This document shows positions 18,084 through 23,460 of a DNA stretch of 32,000 bases, piece after piece. Made by a program: the position numbers and the translations under genes. Below the pieces are notes generated by a model. The model was given only the letters and a program-made list of their open reading frames with translations. It did no database searches and was not told the DNA's origin. The stretch's first letter is position 1. The number at the start of each line of letters is the position of its first letter. Source of the stretch: Candidatus Hermodarchaeota archaeon (GTDB lineage Archaea; Asgardarchaeota; Heimdallarchaeia; Hodarchaeales; Hodarchaeaceae); assembly GCA_048886185.1 (NCBI GenBank), contig JBHLKY010000009.1, positions 183,130-215,129 of the forward strand, in the 5' to 3' direction.

Positions 18084-19583
18084 TTGGTCTCAATATTAAG
18101 AACCAGATTTTCTCGAATAGCTAATGTTGTAATATTCTTTGCTTTAGCTTTGTTTCAAATCATAGTTGTATCTTGGATAAGCATTAGTCAAGAGGCGAAA
18201 CCTGAATATCTCGATATCCAGTGGATTACTCAGTGGCACATCTTAGGATTTTATGTATCAATCAATCCAATGGCAGACCCACGTTTCACTGGATTATTAG
18301 TAGTATTGACCGCTGGATTGCAAATACTCTTATTAGGATTTTTAGTAAATGTAGTATTCTCAAACAAGAATATGGTTCAAATTTTCCCTGAACCGCTATA
18401 TGGCCCTTCTTATGCCCCTGAAGAGGCACCAATTGTTGATAAAACTGTTGCATTAGTAACAAGGGTCTCGCAAAAAGCAAAAATTAAAATAAAAAAGATT
18501 TTTGTTTATCGTAAAGCAGTACCTAATGCATTTTCACTCGATCTTATACCATTACCTATTTTTCGAAGACCATATCTAGTACTCAATACAAATGTTCTGG
18601 AGATACTTAATGACAATGAAATTGAAGCCGTTATTGCTCATGAACTTGCTCATGTGAAAAATAGCGATAGTCTTATCAGGTTGATTTTATCGGTTCCTCG
18701 CTTATACCTTAACCTCGTTTATTTATTTATCTACCTTCAAATCGTCACGGGTATATTAGATGCACTTTTTGATACCCTAAATCTCGGTATTGCGTTTGAA
18801 CGGATAATTTTTCTTGGACTTGTGTATTTCATATTAGCCATTTTCACTAAGATAACAGTTCATTTTCTCTCTTCTGCTAATCATCAGGCTGAATATTTAG
18901 CTGATTATTTTGCAGCCAAATTGATTGGACCAGATATACTAATTAACTCCTTGATTCATTTAGGTCAACGTAGTGAAACAATGCAAGTCCTATCAAGAGA
19001 GATTGAGTGGCTTTCCAGTCTCTCAGAGGAGCAAAAGACTTCTAGTAATTTTTTAAGGAGAATCTACCAGCGGTTTCCAAAAACCCAGTTAAATGAGGAT
19101 GTAGCTCGTGAAATCGCCCCTAGAATTTTTCTGGAGGAGAAATTTGAAGAATTAATAAGGGATTATGGGATTGAGCTGGATTCACCAATCAGATCACAGC
19201 TCATTAAGAGTGCTGTTCCTGGATTACTAGAAAAGAGAGCACAATATTTCAGTACATTAGAGAATGATGAAGCAAAAAAGGCAGATTTCACTCCGAGTGT
19301 TCTTAAGGCAAAGACCATTGACTGGCGTCATTTTGATTATAATGCAAGTCAGACACTAGAAGAGGAGGAAATTGCGAGCTTTATCCAAACAATTCTTGCT
19401 CAACCTGATAAAATGGTATTTGAGCATGAGCTTTTCCAAACTGCTGAGAGGGACAGTGACCATCCAAATTTTCGGGAAAGAATCCTAACAATTTATCGCA
19501 CATTCCATTTAAGTCAATATAAGGAAATTCTGGCTGAAGTAACCAAGAAGCAAGAAAACTCTTCCGAGATGGTTAATTCTTAG
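18084..19583 (+). CDS. M48 (HtpX/Ste24-like) membrane zinc metalloprotease with an extended insert
   Basis: N-terminal TMs, PNAFS, HELAH, EYLADYFA and a distant HPNFRERI motif. TTG start. The stop overlaps the convergent VWA stop by 4 bp. Confidence 0.88.
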   Translation: MVSILRTRFSRIANVVIFFALALFQIIVVSWISISQEAKPEYLDIQWITQWHILGFYVSINPMADPRFTGLLVVLTAGLQILLLGFLVNVVFSNKNMVQIFPEPLYGPSYAPEEAPIVDKTVALVTRVSQKAKIKIKKIFVYRKAVPNAFSLDLIPLPIFRRPYLVLNTNVLEILNDNEIEAVIAHELAHVKNSDSLIRLILSVPRLYLNLVYLFIYLQIVTGILDALFDTLNLGIAFERIIFLGLVYFILAIFTKITVHFLSSANHQAEYLADYFAAKLIGPDILINSLIHLGQRSETMQVLSREIEWLSSLSEEQKTSSNFLRRIYQRFPKTQLNEDVAREIAPRIFLEEKFEELIRDYGIELDSPIRSQLIKSAVPGLLEKRAQYFSTLENDEAKKADFTPSVLKAKTIDWRHFDYNASQTLEEEEIASFIQTILAQPDKMVFEHELFQTAERDSDHPNFRERILTIYRTFHLSQYKEILAEVTKKQENSSEMVNS

Positions 19584-20608
19584 TCATAGAGGACTTTTTC
19601 TAACATTTCGGGGATCGAACGTTCATCAATTGCCATTAAATAGAGTTTAACATTTGCCATTTTTCTTAATTTACCTAATATAGGAGCGGTGAGCTGGAGT
19701 GTCTGTCGTTTAGGAGTGAGGATGATGCGAACATCTTCCATGCGTTTGAGTATAGGCAAAAAATCGATGCCACTTGTGGCTAGGAGGTCGGAAATGATGA
19801 CAAGTGTCTTTTTATAACCAATTTGATGAGAGAACTCTTTCTGTGCTGCTTGTAAAGCAGAAGAGATGTTTGTTTTTCCTCCAGAGCGAATATTAACTAA
19901 TTCTCTAATTATATTTAGTGTGGTTATTTTAGAATCTCTAAATCTCTTGATGAACTCTGGATGACTATCAAATCCAATTAATGCGATGTCTTTGATGTTG
20001 AGCGATAGACTGAATAAAATTGCAGAGAGAATAATGAGTTTCAGATAAATCAACACTGAATGACTTTTATCGATCAATAACATAATAGATTGTAGTTTTC
20101 CTTCTCTTTTATTACAAACAACATGTTGATAAGTAAAGTTAGAGTCCCCTGATAGAAGAAAATTCAAAATTGTACTCTCTACATCCCACGAGTTTCCTGG
20201 AGAATAAGGAATTTTCTTTGGATATTTTGAGCGATCGATTGCATTATATATTCTTTCTGCATGTCTATAAAGCCTTGGAACGAGTTTTTGGAGTAATAAT
20301 TGCTTTTCTTCATAAGAAAGATGTTCCTTGATTTGAAAAAATAAGGAATTCGATTCTAATATAAATTCAGCATGCGTAAAATCCATTTGCAAGGATTCAG
20401 TAACCGCTTTAGGATATAATCCTGCTAAGATCTCAATTGCACGTAAATTCTGAGTATCCATTGCTTGTTGTGCGAATGTTAAGGCAGTTTCTGTGTTTAA
20501 TTTATCTTGTAACTGAAACTCATAGATTTGTTCAAGTAAATAGCTGGAATAATTTACATCATGACTTACTTGCAGCTGAAAGGCGGGATCAATGTCCCGC
20601 CCTAAGAT
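19580..20608 (-). CDS. VWA-domain protein (CoxE-like). Reading frame is open to 20656; proposed to be entered by -1 frameshift from the MoxR gene (the 293-aa ORF from ATG 20461 is the alternative)
   Basis: MIDAS DKSHS, GGKTNISSAL and IISD. I translated the frame upstream of ATG 20461 and found no stop until TAG at 20657-20659. There is no in-frame ATG/GTG/TTG in that stretch and no SD-like motif before ATG 20461. Confidence 0.85.
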   Translation of the reverse strand: MLGRDIDPAFQLQVSHDVNYSSYLLEQIYEFQLQDKLNTETALTFAQQAMDTQNLRAIEILAGLYPKAVTESLQMDFTHAEFILESNSLFFQIKEHLSYEEKQLLLQKLVPRLYRHAERIYNAIDRSKYPKKIPYSPGNSWDVESTILNFLLSGDSNFTYQHVVCNKREGKLQSIMLLIDKSHSVLIYLKLIILSAILFSLSLNIKDIALIGFDSHPEFIKRFRDSKITTLNIIRELVNIRSGGKTNISSALQAAQKEFSHQIGYKKTLVIISDLLATSGIDFLPILKRMEDVRIILTPKRQTLQLTAPILGKLRKMANVKLYLMAIDERSIPEMLEKVLYD

Positions 20609-20614
20609 TTTTTT
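20580..20614 (-). promoter_or_regulatory. Candidate programmed -1 ribosomal frameshift signal (A_AAA_AAA slippery site + 6-nt spacer + stem-loop)
   Basis: Minus strand reads TC[A AAA AAA] TCTTAG GGCGGGA-CATTGA-TCCCGCC TTT. The heptamer is at 20614-20608 in MoxR codon phase. The 7-bp core stem (6 G-C) is at 20601-20582 and extends to 9 bp with G-U/A-U pairs. The -1 frame is the VWA frame. Confidence 0.7.
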
Positions 20615-21456
20615 GAAAAAGAAGGGAAAAAGATTGGCTCCGCAATTTCTAGCAGACTATCCTCAAGAGAATTATTAATATCTGGATGTAACTTCACTTT
20701 ACCCGAGTAAACAGCATATATAGCAGGGAATACAACATCACGAACAAGTGGCCGATTTGACAAGAGTTGAGTCAGTTGGATTGCAGCCCGTACACTTGCA
20801 CCTGTTTCAAAATTAGCTGATGACCGTGTCTGATCTGTAAAGTGAACTATTTTTGTTATTAAATCCTCATCAGAGCAGTTTGTACGTAGTTGGACAATTT
20901 TTCTAGCTTCGTAACCAGATTTATGCTTAAGAGGGATTAAGATGCATCTGTCAAAAAAAGCTTCAGGTAACGGATTTGTACCTATATATTCGATAGGATT
21001 TCGTGCAAATAGAGAATAAAATTCTGCTTTTGCTTTAATATGTCCGAGCTGGGGAACTTCTATTTGTCTCTCATCTAGTGCAGATAAAACACCATTTATG
21101 GATTCACTTGGGGCACGATTGACCTCATTGAAGAAAAATAATCCTCCCTGTTTCATGGCATTTACTAGGGGGCCAGGGATATAGCTTTCTTCCCCAAAAC
21201 CTGTTTTCATGACCAAAGGAGGATCGAACCATCCTCTTAAATGAGTAATTGTAAGGTTCTCATCACCATCCACCCTAAAAAGGGGTCTATTGAGAGCTTT
21301 TGCAATCGTTTTGGCCAATTCAGTTTTCCCTGTCCCAGATTCCCCCTCAATTATTACAGCAATTTGACTATCAATTGCTGCTAAGATTAACTGAATCTCT
21401 TTATCAAGTCCAACCAAATTTTTTTGGCAAGTTCTTAGAAGATCTTCGAGATCCAT
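20602..21456 (-). CDS. MoxR-family AAA+ ATPase (CoxD-like)
   Basis: Walker A GESGTGKT, Walker B variant FFFNE, RNP sensor-1, LPEAFFDR arginine finger and SVRAA sensor-2. Confidence 0.9.
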   Translation of the reverse strand: MDLEDLLRTCQKNLVGLDKEIQLILAAIDSQIAVIIEGESGTGKTELAKTIAKALNRPLFRVDGDENLTITHLRGWFDPPLVMKTGFGEESYIPGPLVNAMKQGGLFFFNEVNRAPSESINGVLSALDERQIEVPQLGHIKAKAEFYSLFARNPIEYIGTNPLPEAFFDRCILIPLKHKSGYEARKIVQLRTNCSDEDLITKIVHFTDQTRSSANFETGASVRAAIQLTQLLSNRPLVRDVVFPAIYAVYSGKVKLHPDINNSLEDSLLEIAEPIFFPSFSKKS

Positions 21457-21486
21457 TATATCATCCCAAGATAAATGGTGAATAAT

Positions 21487-23460
21487 CTAGTCAAGCTCGA
21501 GAAGTGATTTTTTCAGTGTGACTTGTCCTGAATCTTCATTGAACTCGATCCACCCCTCAGTTTCGAGCTCCTTCAACAAGCGTGTAGCAAATACATTTTG
21601 AATTGCGACAGTTTTGGCAAGTTCTTTTAGAGTGGCTTGTTGGATATCCTGAAGTACGAAGAGTATTGCATATTTTGGATTCTTAGCAAGATTGATCCTT
21701 AATGTTTCAACGGCCGTCATCAGATTCGCTGACTTTTCTTCCAACTTCTTCTTTGTATTATTTAAAGTTGAAATTTCATCATCTTTCTCTTTTAACTCAG
21801 TTTCGTTACCTTTTATTCTTTTATCAAGTCTTTCCTTCTCTGCATTAGAATCGTTAAGTTGGGTTCTAAGATCCTTTATTATATCTTCAAACTTATCGTG
21901 TTCACGTAGATTCTCAGCCTGTTTAGATCGGAAATCATCAACTTTATGGGTAATTTCTTCATGCTTTTGTCTCAAAACATCTAGGTCTTTTTGTTTCTCT
22001 TCTAATTCACGATCTTTTGTACCTACTTGAGTCTTAAGATCTAATAGTGATGTTTGCTGCTTTTCGTACTCAATTTTAAGGTTTGCAAAGGATTCTCTTA
22101 ATTCATCTCTATCAGATTCTATTGCATAGATACGTTCTTTTTTACTTTTCAAATCTGTTTCTAAGTCTTTTATCTGAGCTTCTAAAGATCGATTAGTATT
22201 TAGAAGGCTTTCAGTTAAATCTTGAGAATTTTCTAATTTTTCTTGCGCTTCATTTATTTCAGTTAGTTTTTCATTGAATTCTTGTTTTTGGGTTGTAATT
22301 TCTAGAGTCAAAACCTCAAAATCTTGTTTTATCTGTTTATATTCTTGTTTAAGAATAATTAACTGCTCTGAGAGTTGTTTAGATTCTTTCTCGCTCCTTT
22401 CTACTCTAAGAAGTAGTTCTCTATTCTCATCTTCTCTTTTTTCTAGAGCTCGTTGTGTTTCATCTAATTTATTACGAACAACAATCGCTTCTTGGCTTGT
22501 TTCCCCTGAATCTAATAATAAATCCTCATTTTCTTGTTCTAATCTTGATATCTGTTCTCTTAACTGATTTAAGTTGATTTCCATATTCTGAATTTGTTTT
22601 GTCAATTGGTTTATTTTTTCTACCTGCGTCTGTATTTTACCCTCAAAAGCTGTCTTTTGCTCTTCCAACTTGAATCTATGATTATCTTTTAATGTATCAA
22701 TTTCATTTTGAAGGCCATCAATAGTTTCTTTTAGTTTGACATTTTGTTCTGAGTGAGAACTTAGAATTTTTACCTCTGATTTCAAGTTTTCGATTTCAAT
22801 ATTCTTCTCTGATGTTAATGTCTCAATTTCGTTATCCTTATTCCCTAATACTTCTTGAAGCTGCTCTATTTCAAGGCGTGCTGACATTAATGCATTACCA
22901 ACGGTTTCAAAATCAGTTTCCATCTTTTCACGCTCTTGAATAGCTTTTTTTGATTCACGTTGAGCTTCATCAACAGCTTCTTGGAGGCGATTTATGTCCT
23001 CAATTTGTGATGTAACTTTCCCTGAGTCAATTCCAGACTGGTTCTGCAATTCTGCAATTTGTGTTTCTTTCTCTTCCAGTAATATATGCAGATCATCAAT
23101 CTTCATTTCTAAGGCTTCTATTTCGGAGATTTTTTCTTTCAACAATTGATTTTCTTTCTGGAGTTGTTCAAACTCAGTATTTGTAATTAATGTAACCTCT
23201 GAATCAAGTAGCTCGAGGTTATCTACCCCTTTGAGCCCTATTTTCGAGAATTCCGTATGAGCTGCTTTGTTAATAATCTGCATCTTTTGTTTAAGTTTTT
23301 CAACTAAATCTTCTACATCAGCTATTGAATAATATGATTTGGGAAATTGTTGTAGTGTTTTAATCGCAGATTTTGCTTCTGATGATATTTCTTGACTCAG
23401 GCGACGCTCCTGTTGTGCAATATTTTGAATAAAGACAAGTTTGGGGTTCTTGCTTGACAA
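21487..23460 (-). CDS. Long coiled-coil protein with C-terminal winged helix-turn-helix (657 aa)
   Basis: About 500 aa of E/K/Q/L-rich heptad-like sequence with no Walker motifs, ending in PKYAILFVLQDIQQATLKELAKTV...LLKELETEGWIEF (wHTH pattern). Confidence 0.8.
   Translation of the reverse strand: MSSKNPKLVFIQNIAQQERRLSQEISSEAKSAIKTLQQFPKSYYSIADVEDLVEKLKQKMQIINKAAHTEFSKIGLKGVDNLELLDSEVTLITNTEFEQLQKENQLLKEKISEIEALEMKIDDLHILLEEKETQIAELQNQSGIDSGKVTSQIEDINRLQEAVDEAQRESKKAIQEREKMETDFETVGNALMSARLEIEQLQEVLGNKDNEIETLTSEKNIEIENLKSEVKILSSHSEQNVKLKETIDGLQNEIDTLKDNHRFKLEEQKTAFEGKIQTQVEKINQLTKQIQNMEINLNQLREQISRLEQENEDLLLDSGETSQEAIVVRNKLDETQRALEKREDENRELLLRVERSEKESKQLSEQLIILKQEYKQIKQDFEVLTLEITTQKQEFNEKLTEINEAQEKLENSQDLTESLLNTNRSLEAQIKDLETDLKSKKERIYAIESDRDELRESFANLKIEYEKQQTSLLDLKTQVGTKDRELEEKQKDLDVLRQKHEEITHKVDDFRSKQAENLREHDKFEDIIKDLRTQLNDSNAEKERLDKRIKGNETELKEKDDEISTLNNTKKKLEEKSANLMTAVETLRINLAKNPKYAILFVLQDIQQATLKELAKTVAIQNVFATRLLKELETEGWIEFNEDSGQVTLKKSLLELD

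Follow-up and report, generated by a model that had tools for sequence, protein, structure and literature searches.

The window analysed here, 32,000 nucleotides (nt) from a Candidatus Hermodarchaeota archaeon (positions 183,130 to 215,129 of contig JBHLKY010000009.1, assembly GCA_048886185.1), carries on its minus strand a gene for a MoxR-type AAA+ ATPase, followed in the -1 frame by an open reading frame (ORF) for a VWA-domain protein. We propose from comparative sequence analysis that the two are joined by ribosomal -1 frameshifting at their junction, a reading to which we assign a probability of roughly 0.8; that recoding of some kind takes place there is more probable still. The single transcript would then represent a single recoded gene. 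Most ribosomes would keep to the zero frame until the stop codon TAG 20604-20602, yielding a 284-residue NorQ/CbbQ-like AAA+ ATPase, while some would pause at a GC hairpin, both tRNAs would slip back by one base on the heptamer A_AAA_AAA (20614-20608), and translation would continue in the -1 frame through a 49-codon linker and the VWA/MIDAS domain to give a 625-residue MoxR-linker-VWA protein. The two products would probably co-assemble into a ring of short ATPase subunits with one or a few adaptor-bearing ones, as in ChlI/ChlD and NorQ/NorD. The comparisons show the anatomy of the junction, its conservation and selection at the level of the RNA, that the linker is coding, and that the -1 product is collinear with natural fusions; the slippage itself, its efficiency, the production of two proteins, their co-assembly and the role of recoding in setting the subunit ratio of one ring are inferred.

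The MoxR ORF (20602-21456, minus strand as for all features of the pair) starts at ATG 21456 and encodes 284 residues, with the Walker A motif GESGTGKT at residues 38-45 (21322-21345, counted from the ATG). Its 3' end reads TTT TCA AAA AAA TCT TAG, the protein ending F-S-K-K-S-stop, and since the first A of the A7 run is the third base of TCA, the run lies in the phase A_AAA_AAA, that is X_XXY_YYZ (20608-20614). A 6-nt spacer, TCTTAG (20602-20607), which includes the zero-frame stop, leads to the candidate stimulatory hairpin GGCGGGA-CATTGA-TCCCGCC (20582-20601), extended by RNAfold to a 9-bp stem (20603-20580) of -15.8 kcal/mol. From ATC 20608 to GCA 20462 the -1 frame holds 49 codons without a stop and without ATG, GTG or TTG (20462-20608), and the first start codon is ATG 20461, from which a gene caller would annotate a VWA ORF of 293 residues (19580-20461). 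The linker and this ORF make up the 342-residue C-terminal part of the predicted 625-residue product, and the MIDAS (metal ion-dependent adhesion site) motif D-K-S-H-S (DxSxS), read from the translation, lies at 20057-20071. A preliminary description of this DNA had already suggested the frameshift; its coordinates for the MoxR ORF, A7 run, heptamer phase, spacer and hairpin were exact on recheck, and its counts of stop-free, start-free codons and of residues in the 284- and 625-residue products were correct. Three features of a canonical -1 site are found together here: an in-phase heptamer, a stable structure 5-9 nt downstream, and a -1 frame that is open, coding, conserved and free of start codons.

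An A7 run by itself is not unusual in a genome of 35% GC, the window containing 47 such runs against 55 expected, and in-phase heptamers arise by chance 4-14 times per fused coding sequence. The combination of A7, six nucleotides and GGCGGGA occurs once in the window and in none of 100 shuffles, and the junction heptamer is the best conserved heptamer column of the alignment, occupied in 18 of 18 species as compared to 9 of 18 for the next best. A second in-phase heptamer, A_AAA_AAT in an A8 run at 21418-21425 (minus strand, MoxR codons 10-12), at which a -1 shift would reach a stop within a few codons, illustrates how frequent heptamers are in an AT-rich genome; as its column is occupied in only 4 of the 18 species, it is probably due to chance.

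Conservation of the junction within the genus

The names of homologues place the organism in Hodarchaeales (Asgard, Heimdallarchaeia). A search among 40 relatives recovered the VWA ORF and its linker from 20 additional genomes of this genus, the query coverage starting at residue 1-5 in about half of them and at residue 11-24 in the most divergent. One genome (G014), in which the ORF is split over two contigs, was left out, and the 20 loci analysed are those of 19 congeneric genomes and the copy in the window (L001). All 20 (VWA identity 51-71%) have MoxR in frame +2 and VWA in frame +1, and thus the same -1 offset. In the congeneric genomes the VWA frame is open for only 345-368 residues, so it is never an in-frame fusion with MoxR.

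This common offset bears on the suspicion that the A-run is really A8, misassembled in a simple fusion gene, or that a fusion gene was recently broken by a 1-nt deletion, a suspicion that is natural for a homopolymer in a metagenome-assembled genome and for a family whose commonest form elsewhere is an in-frame fusion. Logan contigs from four sediment-metagenome runs of one study, with depths of 12-58, span positions 19500-21500 without an indel; two of the runs are other samples and carry strain single nucleotide polymorphisms. The check was made on contigs and not on raw reads, and the assembly may itself derive from two of the four runs. None of the sequencing runs listed as containing this DNA is recorded as RNA. 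The indel-free contigs together with the same frame offset in 20 independent assemblies of different species, the stronger of the two arguments, exclude an A8 error, which settles in favour of A7 a point that the preliminary description had raised. The offset also recurs in a second family, described below, both halves of the locus are under purifying selection, and synonymous sites are constrained at the junction, all of which speaks against artefact or decay; we consider either to be exceedingly improbable.

An in-phase A_AAA_AAN is present at the MoxR end in all 20 loci, as A_AAA_AAA in eight, as A_AAA_AAC or A_AAA_AAT in seven, and within runs of A9 to A13 in five. In four loci (L005, L007, L016 and L017) the MoxR and VWA frames share an overlap of only 13-16 nt, which contains little besides the heptamer, and the site of the shift is thereby pinned. 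Sixteen loci could be aligned without gaps (alignment A1), and in this alignment the A-run columns A13-A18, GCGGGA and CCCGC are invariant, whereas flanks and loop are free to vary. Heptamer and stem are equally far apart in all 16 sequences, the stem following the heptamer after 6-7 nt. A constant phase, a spacer of 6-7 nt and a hairpin that does not change are together the signature of tandem tRNA slippage on the ribosome.

The stem GCGGGA/TCCCGC is found in a single register in 16 species, with 92.9% of the cells of the stem alignment paired as compared to 45-51% when the arms are slid against each other. As the core pairs are invariant and leave almost no covariation, we turned to synonymous sites. 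When species pairs with the same amino acid were compared over the 625-codon alignment, codon identity was 0.46, and the 15 highest 9-codon windows of synonymous identity all fell at residues 274-295, with a peak of 0.89. The Arg of the 5' arm is encoded by CGG and the Pro of the 3' arm by CCC in 16 of 16 species, although both codons are rare in the genome (CGG 7% of Arg codons, CCC 15% of Pro codons); the other conserved columns (16 Arg, 17 Pro) use 2-6 codons each. These comparisons indicate that selection at the junction acts on the RNA, beyond the protein. Thus the -1 offset, the in-phase heptamer and the stem are all conserved among orthologues, together with synonymous-site constraint, as the preliminary description had asked of them.

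A hairpin under such constraint might instead serve mainly as a signal on the transcript, namely a terminator, attenuator or processing site that sets the ratio of MoxR to VWA mRNA with no recoding involved. The GC-rich stem does stand directly past the stop codon and is followed by TTT in the window. The U-tract is, however, not conserved, the sequences after the stem being TTCTCG, CTTACA, ATCTAT, AATTCT and others in relatives, and archaeal termination relies on oligo-T rather than on hairpins. Moreover, the stem is part of a stretch whose -1 frame is conserved as a coding sequence, and under a purely transcript-level role the VWA ORF would still have no start. We therefore regard this explanation as very improbable. 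An Rfam scan of the window found no family at gathering thresholds.

Several observations weigh against ribosomal frameshifting driven by this heptamer and hairpin. The fold z-score of the window hairpin is a modest -1.75, and covariation on the stem is uninformative, with five of the seven pairs never varying; the outermost pair does vary, being GC in five, AU in three and GU in two sequences and unpaired in six. Furthermore, a conserved R-D..P-A peptide is specified by the codons of the stem, which entangles constraints on protein and RNA. In three congeneric loci with runs of A10-A11 (L008, L015 and L018) the stem or half of it is missing; the hairpin is thus not indispensable, and transcriptional slippage may contribute there. 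Finally, only one -1 frameshift had been established experimentally in Archaea according to a 2021 review (PMC8211752).

Transcriptional slippage, in which RNA polymerase adds one A on the A-run so that a share of the mRNAs carries the in-frame fusion and no ribosomal shift is needed, would account for the variable run length among relatives (A6 to A13). It would likewise fit the loci with A10-A13 (L008, L015, L018 and L011) in which the hairpin is lost or weakened, as expected if long runs need no stimulator. In chelatase AAA+/VWA genes, where -1 frameshifting on A-runs has been measured at 10-63%, the yield rises with run length (PMC3711429). In the window, however, the run is only A7, and in seven relatives it is A6 with a C or T behind it. 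A homopolymer of about nine or more A or T, as is usual for a slippage site, is absent from the window and present only in L007, L008, L011, L015 and L018 (A9-A13), and runs of A6 or A7 are short for polymerase slippage. Nor does the polymerase require the X_XXY_YYZ phase found in 20 of 20 loci or a hairpin at a fixed 6-7 nt, and a paralogous pair described below uses U_UUU_UUA with a hairpin. For the locus in the window we hence consider transcriptional slippage distinctly unlikely, but in the A10-A13 relatives it is a real possibility, since these are exactly the ones in which the hairpin is lost or weakened. The four longest runs (A10-A13, in L008, L011, L015 and L018) go with a hairpin that is lost, halved or mismatched, which suggests either a trade-off between run length and structural stimulator or a drift towards transcriptional slippage.

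Predicted protein products, linker and natural fusions

The short product matches Pfam AAA_5 with 80.6 bits (cutoff 22) and AAA_3 with 53 bits, and the motifs GESGTGKT, FFFNE, ARNP and FFDR can be read from its translation, Walker B being N-E instead of D-E. Its nearest solved single-domain relatives are NorQ and CbbQ (E 1e-7), and the nearest NCBIfam model is GvpN. The VWA part matches VWA_2 with 48 bits and VWA_CoxE with 26.5 bits, and MIDAS residues D180, S182 and S184 are invariant in a 20-sequence alignment (A3). Compared by sequence to solved structures, the VWA part gave nothing at E < 0.01, but a Foldseek search with its model returned as top matches the NorD VWA domain in NorQD complexes and the MIDAS domain of MDN1/Rea1. 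The locus combines a MoxR member of the AAA_5 family with an adjoining VWA partner that has a MIDAS motif. The CoxD/CoxE-like label given in the preliminary description is borderline: it finds support in a VWA_CoxE score just above the cutoff of 26.4, whereas NorQ/NorD is the nearer solved relative, and no cox genes flank the pair.

The proteins do not belong to the chelatase families ChlI/ChlD (BchI/BchD, CobS/CobT). TIGR02031 (BchD-ChlD) reached 29 bits against a cutoff of 499.6, TIGR02030 was not matched and no PF01078 (Mg_chelatase) was found. Neither flanking gene encodes a chelatase large subunit (CobN/ChlH), the rest of the genome not having been searched for cobN. One of these neighbours (21487-23460, minus strand) encodes a 657-residue protein of unusual architecture, a coiled coil over nearly its whole length that closes with a MarR-type winged helix at the C terminus (34 bits); its end lies on the same strand as MoxR, 30 nt ahead of the MoxR start, so it may be co-transcribed. 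The other (18084-19583, plus strand) encodes a 499-residue membrane M48-family peptidase and is convergent with the VWA gene, their stop regions overlapping by 4 nt (19580-19583). A special kinship with Midasin was considered and rejected, as its E-value of 1e-32 is the sum over six AAA repeats of about 29 bits each and Midasin is no closer than NorQ. Both MoxR paralogues of the genome (20605-21456, minus strand, and L024:1936-2802, outside the window) match all six AAA modules of Midasin at about 29 bits each, which is consistent with a shared AAA_5/MIDAS lineage.

The form that a frameshift would produce exists in nature as an uninterrupted gene. At least 172 longer relatives of MoxR, most of about 600 residues, carry AAA_5 and VWA or VWA_CoxE in frame, and such in-frame fusions, for which the preliminary description had proposed to look, are the commonest form of the MoxR-VWA family elsewhere. 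Residues 6-606 of the -1 product align with residues 1-593 of the 611-residue fusion P0061 in a single high-scoring pair (34% identity, E 5e-114), and five other in-frame fusions are likewise collinear with it.

The linker itself is coding. Its protein sequence is conserved across 18 species, and at residues 306-332, which precede the annotated Met, the three codon positions diverge by 0.41/0.21/0.54, similar to the 0.36/0.20/0.58 of the VWA core. An AlphaFold2 model based on the 20-sequence alignment (mean predicted local distance difference test score 83) has a disordered stretch at residues 1-18 and a helical domain at residues 20-123. The annotated VWA start would cut this confidently predicted domain, whose first two helices (20-33 and 39-51) precede or span it. 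The Met at 20461 aligns with Leu, Ile or Val in other species, and public gene calls for the VWA part have inconsistent starts, giving 193-361 residues. The suggestion of the preliminary description that the 49 codons are protein-like is thus borne out by conservation, by coding-like divergence and by the replacement of the window Met elsewhere.

The same evidence bears on the possibility of two ordinary genes, in which VWA starts independently at a non-canonical codon or by termination-reinitiation, while hairpin and A-run have some other role. A -1 offset also arises from the common 4-nt overlaps of stop and start codons, and a TTG or ATG does overlap the stop in some relatives (L012, L045 and L048). 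However, there is no position at which a canonical or near-cognate start codon is conserved, and in L007 the first 110 codons of the VWA frame contain no ATG, GTG or TTG. The codon that follows the heptamer is itself variable among relatives (ATC, ATT, ACC, ACT, ATA, CTC and others), and the collinearity with in-frame fusions would be left unexplained. We consider two independent genes an unlikely explanation for this locus.

Other families and paralogous pairs in the Asgard phylum

Beyond the genus, the comparison sampled the Asgard phylum. In family f3 of the same class (MoxR 43-51%, VWA 31-35% identical), which was sampled as five loci in four genomes with L022 and L023 being two copies of one locus of G036, the orthologous MoxR again ends in an in-phase A_AAA_AAA. 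The hairpins of f3 differ from the stem of the genus, with 8 bp and a z-score of -3.5 in L021 and 7 bp in L022.

A paralogous pair lies outside the window in the same genome (contig C3 of G000, L024:1936-3872). Its MoxR2 starts with GTG, has 289 residues and ends in CGT TTT TTA TAG, which places U_UUU_UUA in phase; 6 nt further on stands a 9-bp stem of -14.1 kcal/mol (z = -3.2) whose hairpin sequence is unlike that of MoxR. VWA2 is open for 367 residues in the -1 frame, and the only nearby ATG, GTG or TTG is a TTG 125 nt past the MoxR2 stop. All genomes sampled from the genus share this arrangement, with invariant stem arms and a hypervariable loop; one pair is AU in 13, GU in two and GC in one. 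Covariation in the paralogous stem is weak within the genus, two pairs changing on both sides, as happened in 49 of 500 shuffles.

A simpler form of MoxR2/VWA2, consisting of U_UUU next to the stop and a hairpin, occurs across the Asgard phylum. Throughout the phylum sample, an in-phase slippery motif is found within 13 nt of the MoxR stop in 62 of 62 loci that have the VWA ORF in the -1 frame, 47 of the motifs being heptamers and 15 U_UUU only. No start codon lies between the opening of the frame and +60 nt in 33 of the 62 loci. The in-phase U_UUU tetramers taken alone are weak evidence, since loci of family f4 with two separate genes also hold TTT TTT. In many loci of the phylum a hairpin stands directly 5' of a conserved GAT GA(N), with arms as different as GAGGAGG/CCTCC, GGGAATTC/GAATTCCC, GGTGA/TCACT and GGCTC/GAGCC. 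This variety of arm sequences across families, judged by inspection and not formally scored, is a stronger signal than the covariation within the genus.

Other states of the pair exist as well. In family f4 (L050, L054-L058 and L061) the paralogous pair consists of two ordinary genes with a +1 offset and a T6 run out of heptamer phase, and an ATG follows the MoxR stop after 10-13 nt in six of the seven loci, L056 having none there. Family f4 thus provides a precedent for separate starts, but the contrast also counts against two genes in the loci of the -1 type, since the in-phase heptamer in every one of these would be unexplained while the f4 run is out of phase and its offset +1. In G122 (family f6, L066:896-3654), a 277-residue MoxR is followed 8 nt later by a 638-residue MoxR-VWA, the AAA domain of which shares only 36% identity with the first gene and differs from it in the P-loop (GSGKR for GTGKT). 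These tandem genes look like a counterpart, after duplication, of the two predicted frameshift products, similar to ChlI/ChlD.

A third type of pair was noted in L097 (G017:C52) and L098 (G169:C131), with a VWA ORF of about 316-319 residues in the -1 frame and an in-phase A10 or A_AAA_AAA at the MoxR end. In L079 (G043:C41:8562-9374) the match to MoxR2 was reported to contain two in-frame TGA codons, possibly because the alignment overruns the stop codon, the gene is broken or TGA is read differently. The other MoxR-like genes of the genome (on C4, C5, C8 and at C9:29.6 kb) were considered as recoding candidates and rejected, as their downstream genes are ordinary.

It is possible, at somewhat less than even odds, that the frameshift at the junction is an ancient signal of at least three paralogous MoxR-VWA families across the Asgard archaea, in which the motifs A_AAA_AAN, U_UUU_UUN, A_AAU_UUU and U_UUU at the stop are interchangeable and the hairpin occupies a homologous position just 5' of the conserved D-(D/E)-P codons.

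Comparison to known systems and implications

The closest parallel is the fs-chlD gene of Mg/Co chelatases, which the preliminary description had named correctly as a case of frameshifting (PMC3711429). In both, a single locus would give an AAA+-only protein in the zero frame and an AAA+-linker-VWA protein after a -1 shift (PMC3711429; PMC9227772), and both share an A-rich site, often with a downstream structure, fused single-ORF relatives and database annotation as two genes. The archaeal cases of fs-chlD (Methanocaldococcus and Methanococcus) were predicted from sequence, and E. coli served as the host for testing cassettes from three genes of the cluster (Antonov et al. 2013; PMC3711429). 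Unlike fs-chlD, the present locus encodes an AAA_5 ATPase that is related to NorQ, CbbQ and GvpN and has no Mg_chelatase match, together with a CoxE/NorD-like VWA part, belongs to an Asgard host, and has a hairpin fixed at the nucleotide level across a genus. Our comparisons support a chlD-like two-products-one-gene recoding in a NorQ/CbbQ-like MoxR-VWA family of Asgard archaea that is not a chelatase.

The dnaX gene of E. coli (tau/gamma) similarly combines an A-rich heptamer (A_AAA_AAG) with a hairpin at a short spacer, and yields long and short AAA+ products at a fixed ratio within one complex, as the present locus may do. In dnaX the shift leads to the short product, whereas here it is predicted to lead to the long one, and on an archaeal ribosome; a conserved SD-like stimulator upstream of the site was not seen here, no search aimed at one having been made. 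The sole experimentally shown -1 frameshift of Archaea is that of fucA1, the alpha-L-fucosidase gene of Saccharolobus solfataricus (PMC8211752, PMC8037382), which like the present locus is a cellular archaeal gene with two ORFs, a -1 offset and a putative downstream stem-loop; its heptamer, A_AAA_AAT, is identical to the site in the relative L012. Only the full-length product of fucA1 is known to be functional and its site is limited to one species group, whereas the site described here occurs throughout a genus and beyond, and both predicted products have obvious roles.

NorQ-NorD and CbbQ-CbbO, in which a MoxR AAA+ hexamer works with a VWA/MIDAS adaptor, are the nearest solved relatives of both halves, and the MIDAS motif is intact here. 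They are, however, encoded by two separate genes with their own starts, the adaptor being devoid of an AAA+ domain, while a fusion is predicted in our case; no Rubisco or NOR target is evident next to the locus. Midasin (Rea1/MDN1) resembles the predicted long product in having AAA_5 and a C-terminal MIDAS domain on one polypeptide, but is a giant eukaryotic protein with six AAA modules. Full-text searches of the literature found no paper that links MoxR with frameshifting or describes frameshifting in cellular genes of Asgard archaea.

If our reading is correct, the locus and its paralogues would constitute an archaeal recoding site of deep conservation and clear function, found in the prokaryotes most closely related to eukaryotes, with the simple anatomy of a heptamer, a 6-nt spacer and a GC hairpin. 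The annotation would need correction, as records of VWA as a separate gene miss about 50 codons and the fusion. The logic of AAA+ alone plus AAA+-VWA would be extended from chelatases to NorQ/CbbQ-like MoxR chaperones, which suggests that recoding serves generally to fix the proportion of adaptor-bearing subunits in an AAA+ ring. Should the signal indeed be ancient, it would be the most widely conserved cellular -1 frameshift in Archaea, and the state of two proteins from one gene may have been the source, by duplication, of two-gene AAA+/AAA+-VWA systems, as in G122 and in the same pattern as ChlI/ChlD. Fused, frameshifted, tandem and separate forms of the pair make up a natural series in which the evolution of such systems can be studied.

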